Assembly: GCA_003345555.1 (NCBI GenBank)
Contig: PRDJ01000003.1
Coordinates: 1 to 11,162 of the forward strand
Direction of reading: 5' to 3'
DNA: 11,162 nucleotides
DNA from: Candidatus Thorarchaeota archaeon
Lineage (GTDB): Archaea > Asgardarchaeota > Thorarchaeia > Thorarchaeales > Thorarchaeaceae
The translations under genes and the position numbers were made by a program. Every line of letters starts with the position of its first letter. Positions within the stretch are counted from its first letter, which is position 1. The notes beneath the pieces were generated by a model, which ran no database searches, was not told where the DNA came from, and saw only the letters and a program-made list of their open reading frames with translations. Of this stretch, positions 1-11,162 are shown in pieces.

Positions 1-1
1 A

Positions 2-109
2 GGCACACTAAACAAGGGCGGTCTTACTGGCCGTGTAATCGAGTCATGGGCTGTACTCGATGAGTTCATCCACGCAGTTAATCAGGTATTCACCAATCAC
101 TTAGGCTGA
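2..109 (+). CDS. 3' end of an unidentified CDS running in from the left edge (GTLNKGGLTGRVIESWAVLDEFIHAVNQVFTNHLG*)
   Basis: Frame 2 is open from the window edge to TGA at 107-109 and reads as a plausible amphipathic protein tail. No family recognised. Confidence 0.4.
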   Translation, partial: GTLNKGGLTGRVIESWAVLDEFIHAVNQVFTNHLG

Positions 110-215
110 CGGGTAGTTGGCCAGCGTGAGCCGCCGCCTTCAAGAATGACCTAAAATCCACGTCTCGACGTTCTTCCGAACCTCATCGAAATAATGTTCC
201 CCATCTTGGCCTGTT

Positions 216-569
216 CTATTGCCCGGTGAGGCCACCGCACTTGCTGTCCTCAAAGATATCGCCAAAGGCCCTGTAGAAGTACTGACAGGCCTCCAATAGA
301 CCTTCTCTACCGGCGGTTGTCAATCTGTAGATGACCTGTCTTCCCTCCGATGTCTTCTCAATCAGATTACGAGAGAATAGGTCCTTGAGCGCGGGATAGA
401 TAGTGCCGGGCGTTGGTTTACTGCCTCTTCTTACAGCGATTCTCTTCGCCAGTTCCTGTCCGTTCATTGGTTTCTTACTCAATTCCCAAAGTATTTGGAA
501 TGAAAGCAGACCACGCATGTCACAGCAGGCTGGCGGACAGCATTCATCGTATACTGGCTTGTGCGTCAC
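216..569 (-). CDS. PadR-family winged-helix transcriptional regulator with Cys-rich N-terminus (CCPPACC)
   Basis: PadR signatures LSFQILWELSKKPMNGQEL, PTPGTIYPALKDL and YRLTTAGR. GTG start at 569 (alternative ATG at 518), TAG stop. Divergent from arsM. Confidence 0.9.
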   Translation of the reverse strand: MTHKPVYDECCPPACCDMRGLLSFQILWELSKKPMNGQELAKRIAVRRGSKPTPGTIYPALKDLFSRNLIEKTSEGRQVIYRLTTAGREGLLEACQYFYRAFGDIFEDSKCGGLTGQ

Positions 570-575
570 GGTCTA

Positions 576-627
576 TATTGGATGACCAATAGGTTTATAT
601 CTGCTTGTATCGGGCGTCCAATAGGAC
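576..627. promoter_or_regulatory. Divergent promoter/operator: TATA box TTTATA at 594-599 flanked by TATTGG-N4-CCAATA (576-591) and a second CCAATAGG copy (618-625)
   Basis: Motifs read directly from the sequence. The TATA lies about 25 bp from the padR GTG and about 25 bp from the second CCAATAGG copy on the arsM side. Confidence 0.55.
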
Positions 628-661
628 CATATTAGATGAGGAATAGAAGGACGAATCTGCA

Positions 662-1420
662 ATGAGAAAGGAGAGCAAGTCCATCAAGAAGCACGTGAAG
701 CAACACTACGCTGAGGTCGCACAAAGAGCCCAGGCACCTGCCTCTTGCTCATGCTCCAGCTCGTGCTGCGGTTCGGTCTCGAAGGCAGAGTATGCAGAAG
801 CAATAGGTTACATCAAGGAGCAAATCGTCACGCTGCCCGACGGGGCCATTGCGGCCAGCGCAGGATGTGGTAATCCCACAGCTCTTGCAGAACTGCAAGA
901 TGGAGAAACAGTCCTCGATCTCGGATCTGGAGGCGGCATTGACGTATTCTTGGCTGCGAAACGGGTCGGACCGCACGGAAGGGTAATCGGTGTGGATATG
1001 ACCCCTGATATGATAGAATTGGCCGAGAAGGGCGCGAAGGAAATGGGCCTTGAGAATGTCGAGTTCAGACTGGGAGACATCGAGGAATTGCCTGTGGAGA
1101 ATCAATCCGTTGATGTCATCATAAGCAACTGTGTCATTAATCTTGCACCTGACAAGGACAAGGTGTTCAGGGAAGCCTACAGAGTACTCAAGCCCGGCGG
1201 GCGGTTGATGGTATCTGACATAGTCACCGATGGTGAGCTGCCCAAAGCAGTAAGGGACAATCCAGATGCATGGGCGGGATGCGTGGCTGGTGCCCTTGAC
1301 GAGCGGGACTATCTGGCCAAGATTCATGATGCGGGATTTCAGGACGTGGAGACTGTCTCTAAGAAGCGATTCGTGGAACAAGTGTACAGTGCAGAGGTAA
1401 AGGCATTCAAACCAATCTAA
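662..1420 (+). CDS. arsM: Arsenite S-adenosylmethionine methyltransferase
   Basis: SAM motif I VLDLGSGGG. ArsM/AS3MT conserved cysteines in GCGNP (C69), ISNCVINL (C157) and WAGCVAGA (C207). Also has LKPGGRL and an N-terminal CSCSSSCC. Confidence 0.92.
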   Translation: MRKESKSIKKHVKQHYAEVAQRAQAPASCSCSSSCCGSVSKAEYAEAIGYIKEQIVTLPDGAIAASAGCGNPTALAELQDGETVLDLGSGGGIDVFLAAKRVGPHGRVIGVDMTPDMIELAEKGAKEMGLENVEFRLGDIEELPVENQSVDVIISNCVINLAPDKDKVFREAYRVLKPGGRLMVSDIVTDGELPKAVRDNPDAWAGCVAGALDERDYLAKIHDAGFQDVETVSKKRFVEQVYSAEVKAFKPI

Positions 1421-1590
1421 GAGGCCGAAAGAGTTCGAGCATACTCTTCACCGCCTAGACGGCTCTTGCCAGCTCACCTCTAGAGTTGGCCTAGAGAATC
1501 GGCACCCGTTACATGATCTTCCGAGCGTATCTGAAAGGTTAAATGGTTCATCAAGCCAGCCGACCAACATCTTTCCGAAGGGTCGATGGA

Positions 1591-2001
1591 ATGCCTCCGA
1601 AGGACATGAACGTCATCGTGTTTGGCTGTACTCAGTGCATGTATAATGCAGCCGATCTTGCAGGCACAATGAAGATACAATATGACGTGAGTGCCCGCAT
1701 CATTCGCATGCCTTGCACGGCAAGGTTAGACATCAACTTCATCCTGAAGGCCCTTCAAGAGGGCGCAGATGGCGTTCTTGTAGTTGGCTGTCACCCCGGC
1801 GACTGCGCTTACAAGACCGGAAACTTGGGTGCGGAAAGAAGGGTCCGCTTCGCGAAGAAGCTCATCGGTCAGCTGGGAATGAATGAGGGCCGCGTGAAGA
1901 TGGTCTTTGTCAGCGCTGCAGAAGGCGACAAGTTCGCGGCTGAGGTCAACAAATTCGCTGACGAAATTCGGAAGATTGGGCCGAATCCGATACGTCTGTA
2001 G
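1591..2001 (+). CDS. mvhD: MvhD/FlpD-family [2Fe-2S] hydrogenase iron-sulfur (delta) subunit
   Basis: Motifs FGCTQCMYNAADLAG, RMPCTARLD, GADGVLVVGCHPGDCAY, GN...RRV, RVKMVFVSAAEG.KF and GPNP. The track starts at 1543, but ATG 1591 (or 1606) fits family length better. Confidence 0.9.
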   Translation: MPPKDMNVIVFGCTQCMYNAADLAGTMKIQYDVSARIIRMPCTARLDINFILKALQEGADGVLVVGCHPGDCAYKTGNLGAERRVRFAKKLIGQLGMNEGRVKMVFVSAAEGDKFAAEVNKFADEIRKIGPNPIRL

Positions 2002-2003
2002 GT

Positions 2004-2189
2004 TTGGGCTCATCTATATCTATTGAAGACTATACAGGGCAAGACGGTTGGCTTCTCAAGAGGGAACCAGCGACTGTTGGATTCTTGGTTGTTATCTTCC
2101 TGTTTGGTTTGCTGATCGGTTTTCTTGGCTTTCGGTTTCTGTTTCGGATGTTGAATCCGGGGGATTTGTTCGTTACGGGGGTGGTATAG
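2004..2189 (+). CDS. Possible small single-pass membrane protein
   Basis: One hydrophobic stretch (VGFLVVIFLFGLLIGFLGF) followed by RFLFR. Only TTG starts are available (2004 or 2085) and there is no clear RBS. It could be a T-rich non-coding tract. Confidence 0.35.
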   Translation: MGSSISIEDYTGQDGWLLKREPATVGFLVVIFLFGLLIGFLGFRFLFRMLNPGDLFVTGVV

Positions 2190-2196
2190 AGAACAG

Positions 2197-2236
2197 GGTT
2201 TATATCCAAAACACTCCATTCCTTAACTATAGTGAA
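2197..2236 (+). promoter_or_regulatory. FTR1 promoter: TATA GGTTTATATC (2197-2206) plus near-perfect palindrome TTAACTATAGTGAA (2223-2236)
   Basis: The 10-mer is identical to the one at 592-601. The palindrome sits at the expected transcription start, 17 bp before the ATG at 2254. Confidence 0.55.
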
Positions 2237-2253
2237 TATGGGGCGGGCAAAGA

Positions 2254-3114
2254 ATGTCGTTAGTAGCACCTCTGGTTGTATCGTTGAGAGAAGGCATTGA
2301 GATAGCTCTGATAATCGCAGTAATGGCATCATACTTGCGTAAGTCGGGTCAAATGCCTCTAGCTCGGTATGTGATGGCCGGCACGCTAATGGCTGTGGTG
2401 GGCAGCATAGGAATAGCCCTCTTAATGGCCGCGATCTGGGGGGAATTTGAGGGGCCCGGCCTTGATGTGTTTGAAGGGGTTGTGGTCATTAGTGCTGCAG
2501 TATTATTGACGACAATGATCCTTTGGATGTGGAAGATGGGGCCCAGCGTCGGGCCGGACATAGAAGCATCAATGAAGCAAAGGGCAAGAGCAGGCAGCAG
2601 CATCGGACTGGTCTTATTGAGCTTCGCGCTCATCCTCAGAGAGGGCGTAGAGCTTGTTCTCTTCTCGATGGCTCTGGCAATAGAGGATGCGACCCAGACA
2701 TATCTAGGGGTCAGTTTGGGGTTGTTACTTGCCTTCGCCGCAGGGGTTGGCATTTACCAAGGATCGCTGAGAATCAGCCTGAGAACTTTCTTCAGGTGGA
2801 CTTCCATATTCCTAGTGCTCTTCGCAGCAGGGATGGTATCCTATGGAATACAGGAGCTACAAGACGGAGGCCTGCTTCTGATCGGGTCACTTCAGGTATG
2901 GGATATCAATCCGCTGTTGGATGAGAACGGGCTAATTGGAGGTCTTGCCAAGGCTTTGTTCGGATATGATGGCAACCCTTCGGCTTTGATGGTCGTGGGA
3001 TATGTGTCGTATCTGTTTATAGTTGCTGTCTACTACGGACTCAACAAGAGACATGTCAACCACGTGGTCCATCCCTCCACGCTCGAAGCCGCAGTAATTG
3101 CCGCCAAGGAGTGA
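2254..3114 (+). CDS. FTR1/EfeU-family high-affinity iron permease
   Basis: Two REGxE iron-binding motifs (LREGIE, LREGVE), about 7 hydrophobic segments, and family C-terminal motifs GIQELQ, WDINPLL and LFGY. Confidence 0.92.
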   Translation: MSLVAPLVVSLREGIEIALIIAVMASYLRKSGQMPLARYVMAGTLMAVVGSIGIALLMAAIWGEFEGPGLDVFEGVVVISAAVLLTTMILWMWKMGPSVGPDIEASMKQRARAGSSIGLVLLSFALILREGVELVLFSMALAIEDATQTYLGVSLGLLLAFAAGVGIYQGSLRISLRTFFRWTSIFLVLFAAGMVSYGIQELQDGGLLLIGSLQVWDINPLLDENGLIGGLAKALFGYDGNPSALMVVGYVSYLFIVAVYYGLNKRHVNHVVHPSTLEAAVIAAKE

Positions 3115-3293
3115 ACAACTGAACAGACCTCATCTTGCGCTCGACAGCAAAGGCTTTCACGGGATGCAGGAAGACCCTATTATCCATTTGCAGCAACCAA
3201 AACGACTTTGGCTGTCATCGCAAACCCATCTAAGGGGGAATACAGATACACTCAGATAGACGTCGAACTGGAGACAAGGCGGAGCAAGCGTCG

Positions 3294-4139
3294 ATGGTTC
3301 GGAGAGAGAAGGGCGAGAAAGTGCCCAATTCACAGAAACAGAAGAGCCCTCTGAAAGACAGAGTGCGCGAGCTATTTGCCAGCAACAAGATGTGCGAGTT
3401 GGCATTTGATGAACTTGAGAATGACGATGAAGTAGATACCATGCTTGAGGACTGCAACAGGATGGCAATAGACAGACTCGGATTCTCTGATCACGGACAC
3501 ACGCACTCTCTGATTGTGACCATGAATGGGATTCACTTGCTGCGCGTCCTGAGCTCGGGAGTTCAGCCATCGATTGTGCAGGAGCAGACTGGGACGTTAG
3601 AGGATTCAGAGCTCGTAGTTATGCTTGCCTGTTATCTGCACGACATAGGAATGAGCGTACATCGTGAGCGGCACAACATATTCTCAGTGACCCTTGCAAC
3701 ACCGATTGTCAACCGGATTCTCGAGAAGGTGTACCCGAAAGACAGGCATAAGCAGGCCCATATCAGAGGGCACGTGCTTCATGCCATTTTCTGCCATGAC
3801 AAGCAAATCACCCCGAGCACGATTGAGGCCGGCATTGTCGGTGTGGCCGACGCACTCGACATGACCAAAGGCAGGGCGAGGATTCCGTTCGAGGCCGGGA
3901 GAGTCAACATCCATTCAGCCTCGGCGATGGCAATCAACAAGGTCGATATTAAGAAGGGTGAAGAGAAGACCGTGAGAATAGAAATCTCGATGAGCAATGC
4001 TTCAGGTATTTTCCAAATCCAAGAGCTTTTGGAAAAGAAGATACGCAACGCGGCCCAGCTGCTTGACCACATCGAGCTTTATGCAATCATGGCTGGAGAA
4101 GAGGATCGGATACTGGGCGAGAAGCTGAGAGTACTCTGA
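3294..4139 (+). CDS. HD-superfamily metal-dependent phosphohydrolase (COG3294-like)
   Basis: Motifs DHGHTH, LHDIG, HAIFCHD and ADALDMTKGRARIPF...IHS.SA.AI..V.I. The true start may be downstream (GTG 3321 or ATG 3390). Confidence 0.88.
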   Translation: MVRREKGEKVPNSQKQKSPLKDRVRELFASNKMCELAFDELENDDEVDTMLEDCNRMAIDRLGFSDHGHTHSLIVTMNGIHLLRVLSSGVQPSIVQEQTGTLEDSELVVMLACYLHDIGMSVHRERHNIFSVTLATPIVNRILEKVYPKDRHKQAHIRGHVLHAIFCHDKQITPSTIEAGIVGVADALDMTKGRARIPFEAGRVNIHSASAMAINKVDIKKGEEKTVRIEISMSNASGIFQIQELLEKKIRNAAQLLDHIELYAIMAGEEDRILGEKLRVL

Positions 4140-4156
4140 TCGGAAACGACCTCTGA

Positions 4157-4585
4157 ATGGAGATCGGTCCCATGCTGGATGGCATGCGAATTTCGAAAGG
4201 TGACTTGGACAGACTAATCTGCCATGCAGAGAGTAGCCTACCCCTTGAATCGGCCGCCTTGCTCTTCGGGCGAATCGAAAGCAATGTAATCTTGGTCACA
4301 AGGGTTGAGCCTGTTGACAATGTCTTGAAGTCAAGCGTCGCATTCGAAGTTGACCCTATGGTCGAATATCGACTGCTTCTGGATGCTGAGGCACGAGGCG
4401 AGGAGATGATTGGGATATTCCACTCACATCCTGCGCCGCCGATGCCATCGAAACAGGATCTCCGCAACATGGATCTAAACCCTGTCGTGTGGCTGATAGC
4501 ATCGAAGACGACCGGCCGTTGGAAGAGTCGTGCCTTCTTGCTAGACAACATGAAATTGGCAGAAGTCTCGCTTATCGTTGTGTGA
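4157..4585 (+). CDS. JAB/MPN+ (JAMM, M67-family) zinc metalloisopeptidase, desampylase-like
   Basis: E31 (PLESAALLFG) plus HSHPAPPMPSKQD (H89, H91, S98, D101). Single-domain 142-aa size. Confidence 0.9.
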   Translation: MEIGPMLDGMRISKGDLDRLICHAESSLPLESAALLFGRIESNVILVTRVEPVDNVLKSSVAFEVDPMVEYRLLLDAEARGEEMIGIFHSHPAPPMPSKQDLRNMDLNPVVWLIASKTTGRWKSRAFLLDNMKLAEVSLIVV

Positions 4586-4587
4586 GC

Positions 4588-4902
4588 CTAACGTTGCAGC
4601 CCTTTCAATGTTCCTGAGGCTCGCTTGGGCTCAAACGATACCTGCGTGTTGCCAATGGCCGTTATCAGCGCAGCAGAAGCAAGAAGCTTATCGAGAGATT
4701 CGGCATTGCACTGCAATATTCCTGTATCTTCATCATCATTGTACATGCCTATGAACAACCTAGAGTCTGCGACGGAGACTTCTCCGAACAGCGAAAGGAA
4801 GTTCTTTCGAATGGCTGCTGAGAGCTGGTGCACATCGATTGCGGGCCCCTCCCTGTGCAGGCGGAAGAGCACATACCTTCTTCTCAGTTTGCGCATTCTC
4901 AC
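4588..4902 (-). CDS. rnp2: RNase P protein component 2 (Pop5/Rpp14 family)
   Basis: N-terminal RRRYVLFRL, central LFGE, C-terminal SGTLKGL. GTGA overlap with the rpp30 stop. Conserved gene order. Confidence 0.85.
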   Translation of the reverse strand: MRMRKLRRRYVLFRLHREGPAIDVHQLSAAIRKNFLSLFGEVSVADSRLFIGMYNDDEDTGILQCNAESLDKLLASAALITAIGNTQVSFEPKRASGTLKGLQR

Positions 4903-5585
4903 GAATCCTCCCGTACGACTTCAATCCCGGGTGTAAATGACTGAGACTTCACTTTGCGCTCAGAGCGGCTCAGGATTTGATCAGGTACCTGATACACGCA
5001 TTCCTTCGACTTGCGCTTATCCATTCCAAGCAGTATGCCGATGTGCCACATGGCGGATGGCGCTCTCATAAGGATGGGTTCGGATGCGAAGCTCGACAGG
5101 ACGACTGCCATCCCTGAATCTATCGCCGTTGCTACTGATTCTCTATAGACCTTCAAAATCCTCGACCTATCAAGCCCGGATGTCCTGAGGAGTGGAGCAA
5201 TAGGGACCTCCAAAGCGATTCCGTTCTGTCCGGCCAGCTTGGCAGTGCTCTCTCGAATAGTATACTCCTTTGATGGCTCTGCAATCGTAAGGAGGTCGAC
5301 TCTGGAATCCTCCGCTGCCCAGTTGGAAGCTTCGATGTCGCTTAGGGGCACTGCAATTACTGAGGTTCTCTGTCTGATGCGTGGCAGCTGTCTCTTTATT
5401 GACTCTGCACCTCTTCCAGCCAAGTCTATCCTAGTCATCAGCACGATGCCGTCGTTCGTCTTTGTTATGGGGTTGCTCATAGGAAGAGGAACAGCAAAAC
5501 CAGTCAGCCCTATCCTGGCCGCCATTCGTGTGAAATCTGTGAGCTTATCGAACTTGGGTACTCTTACGTTCAGGTCCAGAGGCAC
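4899..5585 (-). CDS. rnp3: RNase P protein component 3 (Rpp30)
   Basis: PHP/TIM-barrel-like, with AAEDSRVDLL, AKLAGQNGIALEV and VVLSS.A...ILMRAP motifs. Lies between COG1325 and pop5. GAGGGG RBS before the GTG. Confidence 0.85.
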   Translation of the reverse strand: MPLDLNVRVPKFDKLTDFTRMAARIGLTGFAVPLPMSNPITKTNDGIVLMTRIDLAGRGAESIKRQLPRIRQRTSVIAVPLSDIEASNWAAEDSRVDLLTIAEPSKEYTIRESTAKLAGQNGIALEVPIAPLLRTSGLDRSRILKVYRESVATAIDSGMAVVLSSFASEPILMRAPSAMWHIGILLGMDKRKSKECVYQVPDQILSRSERKVKSQSFTPGIEVVREDS

Positions 5586-5588
5586 GGT

Positions 5589-6047
5589 TCACCCCTCCGC
5601 AGCTGCTAGACGCTCTTGAATGAATGTTATGGCTTTTTCCTGAATACATCGAGGATACTGACGAATATGCAGTTGAATGCTAATGACATCTGATTCCGTT
5701 GCAAGCTGCAAGCGGCCAAGATATGCAGCCTGCTTATCAAGTCTAATGAAAAGAACACAGCGGTCGTCTAAACGCTGCCTTATCGTGCTGAGAAGGGTCT
5801 CTCTGTCGGTTGATGATAATGTTCTCAGGAGGTAGTCTGCTGTAGTCTCGCTTGAGGGCTTATCTTCTGTTGTCGCAGCGATTACGACGATAGGTATCTG
5901 ATTGTACCCTTCTGTCCTTGTGCTGGTCATCTGCACCTTGCTGCGAAGCTCTTCGGGGAAAACATTCAGGACTGCAGCATTCACCCTTTCGACGATCTCT
6001 GTCGCGCGTGAGTAGGCCCGGGCCTCAACCCTGGCGAAGTACGACAT
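5589..6047 (-). CDS. COG1325/DUF54 RNA-binding protein (predicted exosome-associated)
   Basis: Motifs YSRATE...V..A, EGY.QIPI and RLDD..VLFIRLDKQAAY.G. ATG at 6047 with GGGAGA RBS (the track extends to 6074). Canonical position downstream of rpl15e. Confidence 0.85.
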   Translation of the reverse strand: MSYFARVEARAYSRATEIVERVNAAVLNVFPEELRSKVQMTSTRTEGYNQIPIVVIAATTEDKPSSETTADYLLRTLSSTDRETLLSTIRQRLDDRCVLFIRLDKQAAYLGRLQLATESDVISIQLHIRQYPRCIQEKAITFIQERLAAAEG

Positions 6048-6076
6048 ATTCGTCTCCCTGAGCGGAGCAGTCAAGC

Positions 6077-6658
6077 CTACTTCCCAATATTGCCCTTGGC
6101 CCCAAGAGACGGTCTGATCTTTTCTGCACCAGTACCCTTTCTCCGTAGACCCCTGCTCTTCTTGCCGGCTGAAGTGAGTCCACGGTGCGTTCTTCCTTTC
6201 TGTGTAGGGTCACAAATCCAGTTGATGACCGGGTCATTATAGACTTCTGGGCGACTGGGATCCACCAAGATGCATTCGTACCATATCCACTTGCTATCCT
6301 GCCCTAGCCAGTAGGAGTTCAGCAAGCGAAGATTGGGAAACTTGCGAGCAACTCTCTCTTCAGCAATCCAGCGACGATTCTTCTGGGGCGTGTATCTGGT
6401 GACACCCATGCTTCTTGGCTTCCGTCCAGCTTTGGGTCGAATCTTCTCACGAGGACCACGACCCGTTCTCACTCTTACAACAACGTAGCCTAGCTTGGCT
6501 TTGTAGCCTAGTGACCGTGCTCGTCCGAGTCTTGTTGGGTGCTCTAGCCTTACGATACTATCCTGTCTTCTCCAGACGATATATCTACCCCGGATGGTTT
6601 CAGTACGCTCGTCTTGCTCTTCCATCCATGCTTCATTCATGTGTTTGTAGGCTGACAT
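6077..6658 (-). CDS. rpl15e: 50S ribosomal protein L15e
   Basis: Motifs MSAYKH...W, WRR, PTRLGRARSLGYKAK.GYVVVRVR, EERVARKFPNL.LLNSYW and RGLTSAGKKSRGL. ATG at 6658. Confidence 0.97.
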   Translation of the reverse strand: MSAYKHMNEAWMEEQDERTETIRGRYIVWRRQDSIVRLEHPTRLGRARSLGYKAKLGYVVVRVRTGRGPREKIRPKAGRKPRSMGVTRYTPQKNRRWIAEERVARKFPNLRLLNSYWLGQDSKWIWYECILVDPSRPEVYNDPVINWICDPTQKGRTHRGLTSAGKKSRGLRRKGTGAEKIRPSLGAKGNIGK

Positions 6659-6800
6659 GTTACTACTTCCTTTGCCGTGAATCAAGTCTCTTTGTTTGAG
6701 GTTCAGCCCTCAAAGGGCCACATCCCGCGCGGACGTATCCGCCAACACAAAGGAATGACGTGGTCGAGATTCTTCAGCTGTCCTTCTGACTCGACCACGT
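6659..6800 (-). ncRNA. Candidate structured 5' leader of rpl15e (eL15-type ribosomal leader)
   Basis: TTTAAG TATA at 6823-6818 predicts a start near 6795-6800. Then an 11-bp hairpin (6800-6758), a GCGGA-UACG-UCCGC hairpin (6742-6729), and GGG-AUGU-GGCCCU-UUG-AGGGCU-GAAC-CUC (6726-6698). Confidence 0.55.
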
Positions 6801-6865
6801 TTTTCCGGTAGGCTTGACTTAAAGATGTAACGATTGAACTAGACGGCCGGGTCAGGTGCAGTATC

Positions 6866-7783
6866 CTACTTCTTGGCGAACTCTGCAATGACCTTATCGA
6901 CCGTGAGTTCTCCTATTCTGCTCTGGGCTTCGAGCGTGGACGATGCGATATGTGGTGTCGCCACTACCTTCGGATGCTTCACAAGTTTCCAGTCCTTAGG
7001 CGGCTCATCGACGTAGACGTCCAGACCCGCACCAGCGATTGTTCCCGCATCGAGTGCCTTGAGAAGAGCCGCTTCATCAACAATTCCACCACGTGATGTG
7101 TTGATTATGTAAGCTGTTTTCTTCATACGACCGAATTCTTTCTCGCCAATCATGCCTTTTGTCGCGGGTACCATAGGGACATGTAGAGTTATGAAATCGG
7201 ATCTCTCTATGATATCCTTGAGCTCAACCCGCTTTATGCCGAGGTCCTTGCATGCCTTACTGATGTCTACTACATCATAGGCTAGCACATCCATATCGAA
7301 AGCCTTTGCCCTCTTCGCCACTTCTGCTCCGATTCTTCCAAGGCCTACGATTCCTAATGTCTTCTTGTACAGCTCCGTGCCCTCCAGCTTCTTCTTCTCC
7401 CACTTCTCTTCTTTCATCGTGCGGTCTGCCGTTGGGAAGAACCTGATGAGCGAGAGCATGAGGCCAAAGACCAACTCAGCGACAGAGACAGAGGGGCCCT
7501 CGGGAGTATTCAGGACCTTGATGCCCTTCGCCTTTGCAGCCTCTGCATCGACGTTATCGAGACCTACTCCTGCTCTTACTATGAGCTTGAGCTTGTCTGC
7601 AGAAGCGATGACCTCTTTGGTCACCTTCGTTGCGCTTCTGACAACTATGCATTCGAAGCCCTTGATTTGCTTTTCCAGAGGCCCGTCGGTCTCTGGTTTC
7701 CTAACTACAACTGTAAGTCCCGCCTTCTCCAGTCTCTTCTGGGCGGATTCTGCGACGGGATCAGCAATCAGCACACGTACCAT
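6866..7783 (-). CDS. serA: D-isomer-specific 2-hydroxyacid dehydrogenase, D-3-phosphoglycerate dehydrogenase-like (short form, no ACT domain)
   Basis: Motifs VRSATKV, RAGVGLDNVD, GIVGLGRIG (Rossmann), LHVP, INTSRG, LDVY..EP and TPHIASST.EAQ. AGGTGA RBS before the ATG at 7783. Substrate specificity is not proven. Confidence 0.8.
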   Translation of the reverse strand: MVRVLIADPVAESAQKRLEKAGLTVVVRKPETDGPLEKQIKGFECIVVRSATKVTKEVIASADKLKLIVRAGVGLDNVDAEAAKAKGIKVLNTPEGPSVSVAELVFGLMLSLIRFFPTADRTMKEEKWEKKKLEGTELYKKTLGIVGLGRIGAEVAKRAKAFDMDVLAYDVVDISKACKDLGIKRVELKDIIERSDFITLHVPMVPATKGMIGEKEFGRMKKTAYIINTSRGGIVDEAALLKALDAGTIAGAGLDVYVDEPPKDWKLVKHPKVVATPHIASSTLEAQSRIGELTVDKVIAEFAKK

Positions 7784-7830
7784 GACTTTCACCTACTGAT
7801 TCGGGTGAAGGGAAACCCATCTCAATCTGG

Positions 7831-7861
7831 CTTAAACTTGGCGACCGAACAGTTTCTTAAG
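7831..7861. promoter_or_regulatory. Back-to-back TATA-like boxes for serA (minus, TTTAAG 7836-7831) and the flavin reductase (plus, TTTCTTAAG 7853-7861)
   Basis: The only AT-rich TTAA elements in the divergent spacer. The plus-strand box is about 25 bp from ATG 7885, compatible with a leaderless mRNA. Confidence 0.4.
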
Positions 7862-7884
7862 GCCGAATCCACGATTCTTGGCTC

Positions 7885-8466
7885 ATGAAACGGCAGCTCG
7901 AGCCCTCTAATTCCATCACACCATGCCCTGCCATCCTCTTGAGCGTGAAGGGGCCTACTCGGCCAAACATCATCACGCTTGCTTGGGTGGCCAACGTATG
8001 CAGCGAGCCTCCTACGGTGGTAGTTGGTATCAGACCAAAGCGATACAGTCACGCTCTTGTGAAGGATGCGGGCGACTTTGTCATCAACATTCCATCTGCT
8101 GACCTGATTGACGCAACAAGACTGTGTGGCACAAAGTCGGGCAAAGACATCGACAAGTTTGCAGAGGCGCATCTCACTGCGGAGCCGTCAACGAAGATCA
8201 CGTCTCCGATGATTAAGGAATGCATCATCAACATTGAATGCAAGACGAAGCAAGTAATCACGTTAGGGAGTCATGACCTTTTCATCGCCGAAGTTGTGGC
8301 GGTCCACATGGATGAATCTGTTATGGACAAGAAGGGTGAATTCGACGCCGCCAAAGCCAAGCTATTCACCTTTCTCCCGCAAACAGGGGATTACTGGGAG
8401 CTTGGAGGGCAGATTCTGGAATCGGCCCCAGTCCGCAAGACCAAAACCAAGACCCGCGGCCGCTGA
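7885..8466 (+). CDS. Flavin reductase-like FMN-binding protein (DIM6/NTAB, COG1853)
   Basis: Motifs PCPAILLSV, NIITLAW, EPPTVVVGIRPKRYSH, FVINIP, CGTKSG...DKF, ECIINIECK and GSHDLFIAEV. Confidence 0.9.
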   Translation: MKRQLEPSNSITPCPAILLSVKGPTRPNIITLAWVANVCSEPPTVVVGIRPKRYSHALVKDAGDFVINIPSADLIDATRLCGTKSGKDIDKFAEAHLTAEPSTKITSPMIKECIINIECKTKQVITLGSHDLFIAEVVAVHMDESVMDKKGEFDAAKAKLFTFLPQTGDYWELGGQILESAPVRKTKTKTRGR

Positions 8467-8550
8467 TGGATTTCGGAGACGGTTCTTCTCCTGACCTCGT
8501 CATTCAGGTACAACGAAGTGCTCAGGCTACTGAGGCCAGAGACTGCCTGC

Positions 8551-9768
8551 TTACTTGGTTCCTTTGGCACTCACAATCTTGATGACATCGCCGTTCTTCA
8601 GGACAGTCTTGTCGGAAATTCTCATCTTGGTACGGGCATCGATTGCGTGTATGAAGCTCTCCATGAGGTCGGTGTGAATCACACCCGCGAATTCCTTTGC
8701 CGTTGTACCCTCTGGCACTAGGTAAACATCCGGTAGGACATTGCCATCTCCATCCGAAAGCGAGTTCGGATCATGAACCGGATAGACGGCTATCATGTGC
8801 AGGTACTCAAACACTGCCCGATTGAGGATACCCTGTACCCCCGTGCCGCCATACTTCTTGAGAAGGTCCTTCTTGAGCTTGTCCAGCTGCGTTCGTTCGT
8901 TTTCCTTTAATCTCTCGGGCTGCAGGATCTCGAAGTCGTCGTTCCCGGGTATGTACTTGATAATCCCTTTCTTATCCATGTCACGAAGCGCTTTCTCAGC
9001 CAGAGCGCTCACTGGCACAACGAGGGTGTCAGGATATGCCTTCTCAAGTCTCTTGAGGTTCTGTTCTGCGGTAGGACGATCGATTTTGTTGGCTGCGATT
9101 ATTATGGGTTTGGCCACCTTCCGAAGTATGGTAACGAACTTCTTCACATCATCGTCTGTCCACTTGTCTGCCGCTTCAGCCTTGAGACCTGCGTCTCTGA
9201 TTGCCTTCAGAATATGGGCCCTGCTGATATTCAGACCTGTAAGCTTCTCAAGAAGAAGTTCGTCAACCTTTGCAGACTCCGCTTTGACTCGTCCGGATAT
9301 TCTCCTCCAGTCTTTCTGGACTACTGAAAACATCCACTCAGTGACCTCATCCTCGAGGAACTTTACATCCTCCAAAGGATCATGACTCCCTGCGGCAACC
9401 TCCTGCCCTTCGGAGTTCGTGGAGCCGCTGGTATCCACGATATGGATCAGCACATCCGCCTGTCTCAAGTCATCAAGGAATTGGTTACCCAATCCCTTTC
9501 CTTCGTGGGCGCCTGGGACAAGGCCTGCAACGTCAATCATCTTGACTGGTATCATTCTGATGCCATCGATGCAAGCGGAGTTCTTCGGATTGTCCTTCAC
9601 GCCAAAGACCCTACATGCACATGGCGTGCGTACGTAGGTTACTGCAACATTCGCCTGTATCGTTGTGAACGGGTAATTGCCGACTTTGAAATCGGTCATA
9701 CACGCCGCGTTTGTGAAAGAGGTCTTGCCAGACGATGGTTTTCCAACAACACCGACGCTAAAGCCCAT
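8551..9768 (-). CDS. ychF: Archaeal YchF/OLA1-family (Obg superfamily) ribosome-associated NTPase with C-terminal TGS domain
   Basis: G1 GKPSSGKT, G2 YPFTT, G3 DVAGLVPGAHEGKGLGNQFLDDL, G4 NKID, and TGS domain with IHTDL. ATG at 9768. Confidence 0.93.
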   Translation of the reverse strand: MGFSVGVVGKPSSGKTSFTNAACMTDFKVGNYPFTTIQANVAVTYVRTPCACRVFGVKDNPKNSACIDGIRMIPVKMIDVAGLVPGAHEGKGLGNQFLDDLRQADVLIHIVDTSGSTNSEGQEVAAGSHDPLEDVKFLEDEVTEWMFSVVQKDWRRISGRVKAESAKVDELLLEKLTGLNISRAHILKAIRDAGLKAEAADKWTDDDVKKFVTILRKVAKPIIIAANKIDRPTAEQNLKRLEKAYPDTLVVPVSALAEKALRDMDKKGIIKYIPGNDDFEILQPERLKENERTQLDKLKKDLLKKYGGTGVQGILNRAVFEYLHMIAVYPVHDPNSLSDGDGNVLPDVYLVPEGTTAKEFAGVIHTDLMESFIHAIDARTKMRISDKTVLKNGDVIKIVSAKGTK

Positions 9769-9808
9769 TACAACCAACTCTCATACTGTGGAGTATTTCC
9801 TCACCGGC

Positions 9809-9824
9809 GAGAGATAAAGCTCTC
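9809..9824 (-). promoter_or_regulatory. Probable ychF TATA box (TTTAT on minus strand, 9818-9814) enclosed by a GAGAG/CTCTC inverted repeat
   Basis: The sequence GAGAG-ATAAAG-CTCTC lies about 45 bp upstream of the ychF ATG. Confidence 0.35.
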
Positions 9825-10135
9825 CAATCATTCCATCAGAAGTGAAGGTGGGCAAATCATATTGCGAAGAGAATCCACACAACCAAAACCTGCGCGGTCT
9901 CCGATAGGATTGCGAGGGAGCAATCCAAATGAGCTCCCATGCGTATAACAGGGCTTGGCCGTTTGTTAAGTCCAAAGATGTGACCAATACCACGTTTTGA
10001 CTCCATTAGTAATGGAGGTGTGTTTGGCCGCTGCTCGTATGTGCTGGACTGGTCGAGAATGGATTCCGGGGAGCCTTTCAAGAAGGCGGCGAATCCAACA
10101 CCCCCTTATATGCCTAGCAAGCGGAGGCTTCTCAC

Positions 10136-10576
10136 ATGGAATGGATGGCGTTCCAATCGGGTGCGTCAAAAAGCATGACGGAGCTTGTATGCGACTACAT
10201 TCTTGTAAGGAGACCATCCTTGCCGCGCTGGTGGGATCCTGTCGCAAGACCTCATGTGGCTGTCATAGTCGAAGACGCCATCGATGACTCCGCCGTCCGG
10301 TATTATCTGTCTCGGACTGGTTGTCCTGACCGGAATGGTCGTGTTCCTCTAGAAATCTCCGATATTGAGAGTCTTCCGGAAGGCTCACTTCTTGAGGTCC
10401 GATACAATACCACCAAGGCGAACTTGTATAGACTTGAACTGATAGACAATGTTCCTTGCTGGAGATGGGTAGGCCGTTGCAGGGGGCTATCAAGTTTCGA
10501 GTCTGAGATGGTTGATTGGACTCACCTGCTTGATGATGTGGAGTCCTACCGGATTACGGGATTGGTTCCCAACTAG
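10136..10576 (+). CDS. Hypothetical protein, no family recognised
   Basis: GGAGG at 10123-10127 lies 8 nt before the ATG, with TTATAT about 30 bp upstream. It fills an otherwise empty gap and has a globular-looking composition. Confidence 0.65.
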   Translation: MEWMAFQSGASKSMTELVCDYILVRRPSLPRWWDPVARPHVAVIVEDAIDDSAVRYYLSRTGCPDRNGRVPLEISDIESLPEGSLLEVRYNTTKANLYRLELIDNVPCWRWVGRCRGLSSFESEMVDWTHLLDDVESYRITGLVPN

Positions 10577-10749
10577 CGGATTACCGCTGCGTCACTATCT
10601 GCTGGACAACGGGGCCAGTCATGGCTTCTTGCTTCCTTCTCATTAGTGGTAACAAAGGACCTTTGTTGATGGGATTAAGACTTCGTGTAAAGAAGATGGG
10701 CAATCTCTCGTCAGCTATGTTCAGATGGCAAGCCTTATCAGAGTACATT

Positions 10750-10763
10750 TGAACGTTCTTTCA
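10750..10763. promoter_or_regulatory. ArsR/SmtB-type operator core TGAA-N6-TTCA
   Basis: TGAACGTTCTTTCA matches the CzrA/SmtB operator core, 9 bp upstream of ATG 10773. Confidence 0.55.
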
Positions 10764-10772
10764 ACTGTTCGA

Positions 10773-11114
10773 ATGAAGGTGACCTTGCTGCCAACCAAAC
10801 TCAATCAAGACCACCGCCCGATCCTGTTCGACGATACGGAAGCAGAGGCGGCCGTCAGAATCTTCAAGGCTCTGTCTGACGAAACGAGGGTAAGGACGTT
10901 GTCGATACTTACGATGAACAAGGATTACTGTGTTTCAGACATCGCATCAATGCTGAAGATGGACATTAGCAGGATAAGTCACCAACTTACGAAGCTTGAG
11001 GACTTGGGTTTCATCAGGCGACGTAAGTCTGGCAAGAATGCGTACTATCGAATCAGCGACGATTGCATCCGAAGTATACTTGGGAGGGCGAAGGAGCATG
11101 TCGCAGGAATCTAG
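10773..11114 (+). CDS. ArsR/SmtB-family metalloregulatory repressor
   Basis: Motifs FKALSDETR..IL, CVSDIA..L, ISHQL.KL...G.I...K.GK..YY.I, and an alpha5 helix ending EH. The track starts at 10725, but ATG 10773 is preferred because of the operator position. Confidence 0.9.
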   Translation: MKVTLLPTKLNQDHRPILFDDTEAEAAVRIFKALSDETRVRTLSILTMNKDYCVSDIASMLKMDISRISHQLTKLEDLGFIRRRKSGKNAYYRISDDCIRSILGRAKEHVAGI

Positions 11115-11116
11115 AA

Positions 11117-11162
11117 GTGCCTGTGAGTACTGCGAGGCAGAACGGGCAAGACGCGAAGCAGT
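11117..11162 (+). CDS. Possible 5' end of a gene co-transcribed with the ArsR regulator
   Basis: GTG 2 nt after the arsR stop, frame open to the window edge (MPVSTARQNGQDAKQ...). Too short to confirm. Confidence 0.25.
   Translation, partial: MPVSTARQNGQDAKQ

Follow-up and report, generated by a model that had tools for sequence, protein, structure and literature searches.

What controls arsenic methylation in an archaeon whose arsM gene has no arsR gene at its side? The question is raised by a stretch of 11,162 nucleotides from Candidatus Thorarchaeota archaeon (assembly GCA_003345555.1, contig PRDJ01000003.1, positions 1 to 11,162 of the forward strand), here called the window, in which arsM lies head-to-head with a gene for a PadR-type regulator carrying an N-terminal tag of cysteine residues. 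The original prediction, made from the letters of the sequence, read this arrangement as a thiol-sensing PadR divergon with arsM, an interpretation which the sequence comparisons reported here support. We consider it likely that the PadR protein is a dimeric, autoregulated repressor of arsM which senses arsenite (As(III)), or else Sb(III) or methylarsenite (MAs(III)), by way of a three-thiolate site near its N terminus. The genes and the tag are arranged as follows.

216-569, minus strand: padR-type regulator gene, 117 aa, with a GTG start at 569 (Pfam PadR, AlphaFold2 model, Foldseek)
522-542, minus strand: codons C10-C11-P12-P13-A14-C15-C16, the tag of cysteines at the N terminus, predicted to be disordered and followed at once by helix 1
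662-1420, plus strand: arsM, As(III) S-adenosylmethionine methyltransferase, 252 aa, short form (NF008823)

The product of the open reading frame (ORF) 662-1420 matches the NCBIfam arsenite methyltransferase model NF008823 with 337 bits against a cut-off of 263. It has the S-adenosylmethionine motif VLDLGSGGG, an N-terminal CSCSSSCC cluster and further cysteines at C69 (GCGNP), C157 (SNCVINL) and C207 (WAGCVAG), and it aligns with the solved ArsM proteins 5evj and 4fr0 at the S-adenosylmethionine motif and the cysteines of GCGNP, SNCV and GCV, plus the N-terminal cysteine cluster, so that four cysteines correspond to the catalytic cysteine region of the solved proteins. No second arsM above the cut-off is present in the whole genome (2.28 Mb, 93% complete), and the genes encoding RNase P p30, eL15 and an MvhD-like protein (Pfam) identify the surroundings as archaeal. 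The head-to-head arrangement across 92 bp that had been described is confirmed, the gap extending from 570 to 661, and so is the lack of an ArsR-type gene adjoining arsM: the nearest HTH_5 protein, an ArsR/HTH_5-type regulator at 10725-11114 on the plus strand (42.7 bits), is ~9.3 kb off. We rejected the latter as the regulator of arsM since it lies 9 kb away behind unrelated genes and no evidence links the two. As to a canonical ars operon, no Acr3 was found in this 93% complete genome; an ArsB/CitMHS-type permease at C82 has no adjacent regulator, and there is one ArsA/Get3-like ATPase. This inventory of Acr3, ArsB and ArsA speaks neither for nor against an arsenic switch at arsM.

Translated from GTG 569, the regulator opens with VTHKPVYDECCPPACCDMRG, which verifies the predicted C10-C11-P-P-A-C15-C16 motif at nt 542-522; an in-frame TAG two codons upstream of the GTG makes a longer frame impossible. 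PadR (PF03551) is the only Pfam family reported for the protein (44.3 bits against a cut-off of 27, residues 26-91). Among the NCBIfam models there is a weak match to the Rv3488 family, while the ArsR/SmtB model NF033788 reaches 21.7 bits against a cut-off of 55, which does not qualify the protein as having an ArsR-type helix-turn-helix. An AlphaFold2 model obtained with 26 homologues as input has a mean predicted local distance difference test score (pLDDT) of 84.4 and consists of helices at residues 18-30, 37-48 and 54-66, a beta wing at 70-83 and a long C-terminal helix at 85-112. When compared by Foldseek to the Protein Data Bank, PadR subfamily-2 (PadR-s2) proteins rank first (TA0346, Rv3488, RosR, LmrR and LadR-like proteins; E-values of 3e-6 to 1e-4, template modelling scores of 0.6-0.8). 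As modelled, the protein is of the PadR subfamily-2 fold with its ~110 aa architecture. Residues 1-17 are of low confidence and unstructured in the model, with residues 1-10 below a pLDDT of 50 and the block 11-20 at a mean of 59.

The tag is made only if translation begins upstream of it. An ATG at 518 is in frame 17 codons downstream of the annotated GTG, and if it were the true start the cysteines would not be synthesized and the gene would encode an ordinary PadR that merely neighbours arsM. Apart from the presence of this codon, such a start has in its favour that one database cluster has been called from a later Met (P0004, P0006). Conservation of the upstream codons argues otherwise. 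A search of a 5.8-billion-protein collection returned more than 1000 homologues, and the tag was described for the best 120 clusters, which are 59-90% identical and, where named, come from Thor-, Hermod- and Hodarchaeota metagenome-assembled genomes. Almost all of them contain CCPP[D/E/A/G/S/N]CCDMRG, which is separated from the start codon (Met or Val) by 8-15 residues of poor conservation; the motif, in the form CCPPxCCDMRG, is near-invariant in more than 100 clusters. The 17 codons upstream of ATG 518 are conserved in these clusters as protein, with synonymous changes: at 66 loci with the exact motif the cysteine codons are a mixture of TGC and TGT and all four proline codons are used. Such free variation of synonymous cysteine and proline codons is the mark of selection that acts on the protein rather than on the DNA. 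Furthermore, a start at ATG 518 is very unlikely since the closest relatives, which are 85% identical, have an ATG at the codon corresponding to GTG 569, and GTG is used at this same position in 16 of 64 loci. The promoter, discussed below, has a TATA spacing that fits a leaderless start at 569, and this spacing together with the operator recurs in 54 of the 64 loci. Taken together, the conservation and the spacing render an untagged protein highly improbable, and argue that the tag is translated and under selection.

Which of the cysteines would form the sensor can be read from an alignment of 26 sequences, in which C11, P12, P13, C15, C16, D17, M18, R19 and G20 are invariant. At the level of sequence this provides the three conserved thiolates of an S3 site, with C10 as a nearly invariant fourth. 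The proposed cysteine set had comprised C95 and C111 in addition to C10, C11, C15 and C16. Its N-terminal part stands; C95 and C111 are both present in the window PadR and were rejected as part of the sensor for their lack of conservation in the alignment, so that the core site would be C11/C15/C16 with C10. The C-terminal tail is variable in general, many Thorarchaeota proteins ending in C-x-C or C-x-x-C and those of Hermodarchaeota having no cysteine there.

The pairing of this PadR with arsM extends well beyond the present contig. When one genome per species was scanned for 185,579 species, 217 genomes were found to encode a relative of the PadR, and the best 80 loci from these genomes were compared, using tblastn with the window ArsM to detect arsM. 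They belong to Thorarchaeota, Hermodarchaeota/'Promethearchaeota', Bathyarchaeota, Methanocellales and Methanomethylicota. A divergent arsM, with an ArsM 50-89% identical to that of the window, is situated immediately upstream of padR in 73 of the 80 loci, mostly at an intergenic distance of 80-122 bp. Clustering of all flanking ORFs revealed no other neighbour common across lineages; the next commonest, all of them lineage-specific and none present at more than 22 loci, encode the TATA-binding protein, an aspartyl protease, an S33 hydrolase, a nitroreductase and a flavin reductase. The recurrence of both the pairing and the motif is far beyond chance. The two genes also come and go together. 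Among 251 genomes sampled from the phylum of the window, those of its own family contain both genes in 42 cases, neither in 16, padR without arsM in one and arsM without padR in none, and in a second family (f12) each gene is found in 18 of 19 genomes. This joint presence and absence, added to the 73 loci, ties the PadR genomically to arsenic genes. Pairwise distances between PadR proteins correlate with those between ArsM proteins (r = 0.75, a value reached in 0 of 999 permutations), which is compatible with inheritance as a unit, shared species phylogeny contributing to the correlation.

An arsenic gene may be linked to the tagged PadR even in two genomes of another family (G053 and G061), in which it is not beside arsM and the latter is found on another contig. 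Here (L097:2338-3812 and L100:2547-3962) a PadR with the tag CCPEKPDCC is divergent from a nitroreductase gene, with one operator copy in between, and the next gene after padR encodes a GNAT protein that among the NCBIfam models comes closest to the arsenic-resistance acetyltransferase ArsN2 (115-118 bits). This ArsN2-like neighbour would constitute an independent arsenic link. A Methanocellales variant at four loci (L064:5989-9135, L074, L076 and L077) has the motif NPPxCCDMRG, without the first cysteine pair, arsM and the operator; the genes for aRF1 and arginyl-tRNA synthetase follow directly downstream of it on the same strand, and a regulator that responds to a ligand would be unusual in such a place.

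Some further observations concern individual genomes. That of the closest relative contains two identical padR-arsM copies (G152:C9 and G152:C10; L003 and L004), on contigs of 4.9 kb and 120 kb, which could be due either to a recent duplication or to assembly redundancy. Many of the matches to long-form Asgard arsM genes (G064:C140:8340-9149, G047, G070, G088, G038 and others) include one in-frame TAA or TAG, probably since the match overruns the true stop. In the window, arsM is followed on the plus strand by a gene for a stand-alone MvhD/FlpD-like protein (1543-2001; VhuD-like, 166 bits, below the cut-off) and one for an EfeU/FTR1 iron permease (2254-3114); neither is conserved beside the padR-arsM pair elsewhere.

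How the two genes might be controlled together is suggested by the 92 bp that separate them, in which the following elements can be recognized (no strand assigned).

576-591: proximal operator candidate TATTGGATGACCAATA, a TATYGG-N4-CCRATA palindrome that separates the TATA box from the padR start
594-600: shared TATA box TTTATAT (ATATAAA toward padR), abutting the operator in the family consensus ACATTTAAATG
608-623: distal operator candidate TATCGGGCGTCCAATA, beyond the TATA box toward arsM and over the expected arsM transcription start region
630-645: degenerate third copy TATTAGATGAGGAATA, differing from the consensus at 3 positions, 16 nt short of the arsM ATG; weak

An alignment of padR-upstream sequences yields the family consensus ACATTTAAATG-TATCGG-N4-CCAATA, followed after 7-8 nt by ATG or GTG in 54 of 64 loci, with a second copy of the palindrome 45-55 bp further toward arsM. 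A site at the proximal position is found in 64 of 81 loci, at least one site in 74 and at least two in 56; at the position of the third copy, other lineages have a perfect palindrome. Counted over 10.5 kb of DNA upstream of padR, the strict form ATYGG-N4-CCRAT has 133 copies, as opposed to 30 in the 764 kb elsewhere, an enrichment of about 320-fold, and the site centres are near -15 and near -60 to -70 relative to the padR start codon. The classical PadR operator is ATGT-N8-ACAT. No ATGT...ACAT is present between 570 and 661, where the conserved site is instead TATYGG-N4-CCRATA.

TTTATAT is the only clear TATA box for arsM as well as for padR. Its centre is 27-28 nt before the padR start codon, and since this equals the canonical archaeal distance between TATA box and transcription start site (~27-28 nt) the padR mRNA is probably leaderless and starts at the start codon; the tag would therefore lie inside the protein. 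For either of the divergent genes, one operator separates the TATA box from the site at which transcription is expected to start. Archaeal repressors that prevent the polymerase from being recruited would usually be placed there. The candidate palindromic operator, which has a fixed promoter position in 74 of 81 loci, may serve in autoregulation.

We propose the following sequence of events. In the uninduced state a PadR dimer, the established form of PadR proteins, would bind the TATYGG-N4-CCRATA palindromes of 16 bp that flank the shared TATA box and thereby shut off its own leaderless transcript together with the divergent arsM. The tag, C(C)PPxCC, would supply the three thiolates C11, C15 and C16, with C10 usually available as a fourth or spare, at a position just ahead of the DNA-binding domain's first helix. 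A trivalent metalloid bound to these thiolates, likely As(III) and possibly Sb(III) or the product MAs(III), may constrain or cross-link the N-termini and cause the repressor to leave the DNA. ArsM would then be made only in the presence of arsenic.

Several points weigh against this model. The ligand has been deduced from the identity of the adjacent gene and the chemistry of cysteines, and with the tag predicted to be disordered the structural model offers no site geometry. In the 26-sequence alignment C10 is not invariant, a few Bathyarchaeota having Y, I, S or T there, C95 varies (C/S/A/T/R) and C111 is not conserved. At 6 of the 80 loci padR is without an arsM match beside it, and a further one (L020) has only a 52-residue remnant; the ArsN2-like match is below the curated cut-off of 125 bits. 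As for transcription, contigs in two wetland RNA libraries match padR at 242-427 and arsM at 917-1348, a weak hint of expression in that the contigs indicate neither strand, 5′ end nor level and DNA carry-over is possible; the RNA contigs do not cover 428-916, with the tag and the intergenic region, which counts neither way. Lastly, Cd, Hg, Cu(I) and Zn are bound by vicinal cysteines as well, which are also able to pair as disulfides, and Rv3488, a PadR of related fold with solved complexes, has been reported to bind Cd.

It follows from the chemistry of such motifs, which are not specific for arsenic, that the same repressor and operator could serve another thiophilic signal (Cd, Zn, Cu(I), Hg or sulfide/persulfide), with arsM as one target of a soft-metal or sulfur-stress response. 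We regard this as unlikely. Rv3488 is a PadR-s2 protein among the closest folds and the subject of the weak NCBIfam match, and some loci have nitroreductase, flavin reductase or DinB genes as neighbours, which are not classical ars genes. However, arsM is the only neighbour conserved over five archaeal lineages, padR and arsM have been gained and lost together, and the pair is not linked to any gene for metal efflux or for a metallothionein. A search for a wider regulon in the genome of the window gave 11 matches to the strict motif, compared to 4 in a reversed control; two of the 11 are those within 570-661, and of the others the two that were inspected are not in promoters, so that this search identified no further targets. 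We rejected the site at C3:9480, which is without the TA flanks of the 16-mer, and that at C37:16450, which is inside a 477-codon ORF.

Another possibility, and a still less probable one in our opinion, is that the tag acts as a thiol-disulfide redox switch or provides ligands for an Fe-S cluster or a structural Zn, in which case the regulator would report the redox state. Four closely spaced cysteines could indeed form disulfides or ligate a cluster across the dimer, the archaeal PadR-like RosR, with its role in oxidative stress, is a close fold match, and ArsM needs reduced cysteines. Against this, three of the cysteines are strictly invariant in a C-x3-CC and not a CxxC arrangement, the PP turn and disordered context would seem unlike cluster-binding motifs, and no redox enzyme is a conserved partner. 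In addition, three other types of regulator beside arsM carry vicinal CC pairs, an indication that the signal common to them is what ArsM uses as its substrate.

These other regulators came to light at 12 arsM loci chosen for comparison from Asgard genomes without a PadR of the window type. An AbrB/MazE-type protein is found at 6 of them, a PadR of another clade at 2, an ArsR with SLCCS at 1, an AhpD-like protein at 1 and no identified regulator at 2. The general expectation that arsM is under ArsR control, on which the original prediction had drawn, was not borne out in this small sample from the phylum, where 1 of the 12 loci has an ArsR beside arsM. The genes of the first two classes are positioned as follows.

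L085:1711-2001, plus strand: AbrB/MazE-type protein (PF04014), before arsM on the same strand
L086:2916-3203, minus strand: AbrB/MazE-type protein (PF04014), before arsM on the same strand
L087:1685-1975, plus strand: AbrB/MazE-type protein (PF04014), before arsM on the same strand
L094:2868-3167, minus strand: AbrB/MazE-type protein (PF04014), before arsM on the same strand
L091:1714-2058, plus strand: AbrB/MazE-type protein (PF04014), before arsM on the same strand
L090:3803-4198, minus strand: AbrB/MazE-type protein (PF04014), before arsM on the same strand
L089:2479-2868, plus strand: PadR of the second clade, divergent from arsM, with C-terminal cysteines
L093:1383-1778, minus strand: PadR of the second clade, divergent from arsM, with C-terminal cysteines

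The AbrB/MazE-type proteins, of 95-130 aa and encoded directly ahead of arsM, have N-terminal cysteine-rich CC...CC tags such as ECCPSSGEGESCC or EICCEPEKMNSTCC, and 4 of the 6 contain an internal xCC pair (VCC, ICC or PCC). With their swapped-hairpin fold, they are a second candidate for a non-ArsR arsenic regulator. The second PadR clade has the motifs QQCCPEG...NCDC and DSCCPDG; it exhibits no significant BLASTP similarity to the window PadR and looks like an independent gain of the CCP motif. Because vicinal cysteine pairs thus recur on unrelated DNA-binding folds beside arsM, they would seem to sense what ArsM acts on, and we return to a PadR that responds to As(III) as the preferred reading of the window. 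A wider generalization has in our view about an even chance of being right: that in Asgard archaea and Bathyarchaeia ArsR has at arsM been largely replaced by unrelated scaffolds which independently acquired vicinal-cysteine tags as a portable As(III) sensor, the window PadR being the founding member of a new metalloregulator family with a readable 16-bp operator.

If the model is correct, the PadR would be a regulator of arsenic methylation in abundant uncultured archaea of wetlands and marine sediments (Thor-, Hermod- and Bathyarchaeota), which matter for arsenic volatilization and the formation of methylarsenic in paddy soils and wetlands. The sensor and operator would form a compact pair of ~115 aa and a 16-bp palindrome that can be tested in vitro and might serve as a biosensor scaffold. 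The tag would represent a further clean case of convergent S3 metalloid sites, and the promoter and operator architecture is of a kind that can rarely be read in Asgard archaea. A full-text literature search, in which subscription-only papers were outside the scope, found no work that connects PadR proteins with arsM or with the sensing of arsenic.

Among known systems, the solved PadR-s2 proteins (TA0346, 3elk; Rv3488, 5zhc/5zi8; LmrR, 3f8b; RosR, 6ez1) share fold and size with the window protein, with profile matches from residue ~18. They differ in that none aligns to the N-terminal tag, the alignments starting at profile positions 12-21. Known PadR ligands occupy the dimer interface and comprise phenolic acids, drugs or Cd. 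The tag itself is more reminiscent of the metalloid site of ArsD, where Cys12-Cys13-Cys18 bind As(III) as well as Sb(III): both are short linear motifs with a vicinal cysteine pair and a third cysteine a few residues away. ArsD, however, is a thioredoxin-like chaperone and weak repressor without a PadR domain, and the logic of the motif is all that the two have in common.

The ArsR/SmtB repressors resemble the window PadR as small dimeric winged-helix proteins encoded beside the ars gene that they control and autoregulated, as predicted here. Their S3 site, a vicinal cysteine pair with a third cysteine outside the DNA-binding core, is the kind of site we propose for the PadR. S3 sites of ArsR proteins have evolved independently at different positions, with Cys15-Cys16 and Cys55 at the N terminus of Corynebacterium glutamicum ArsR1 and Cys95-Cys96-Cys102 in Acidithiobacillus ferrooxidans ArsR; the R773 ArsR is another example from the family. 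In contrast to these HTH_5 proteins, the window protein is a PadR (PF03551) with a long C-terminal dimerization helix, its operator would be TATYGG-N4-CCRATA, and its promoter follows archaeal logic with a TATA box and a leaderless mRNA.

A close parallel outside the ArsR family is MarR_ars of Achromobacter deleyi As-55 (AdMarR_ars), in which Cys36, Cys37 and Cys157 sense As(III) and Sb(III), these metalloids releasing the repressor from the marR and arsV promoters (bioRxiv 10.1101/2021.08.12.456183). As predicted for the window PadR, it is a non-ArsR winged-helix repressor that has gained cysteines and binds its own and a neighbouring ars promoter, in this case as shown by experiment. It belongs to the MarR family, is bacterial and controls arsV, not arsM, and its cysteines are located inside the fold and at the C-terminus, whereas those of the window PadR are in an N-terminal tail; its function has been demonstrated, that of the PadR is predicted. 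Winged-helix repressors that sense metalloids through cysteines are thus known from ArsR and, in one study, from MarR, while the scaffold, the tag and the operator described here are new.

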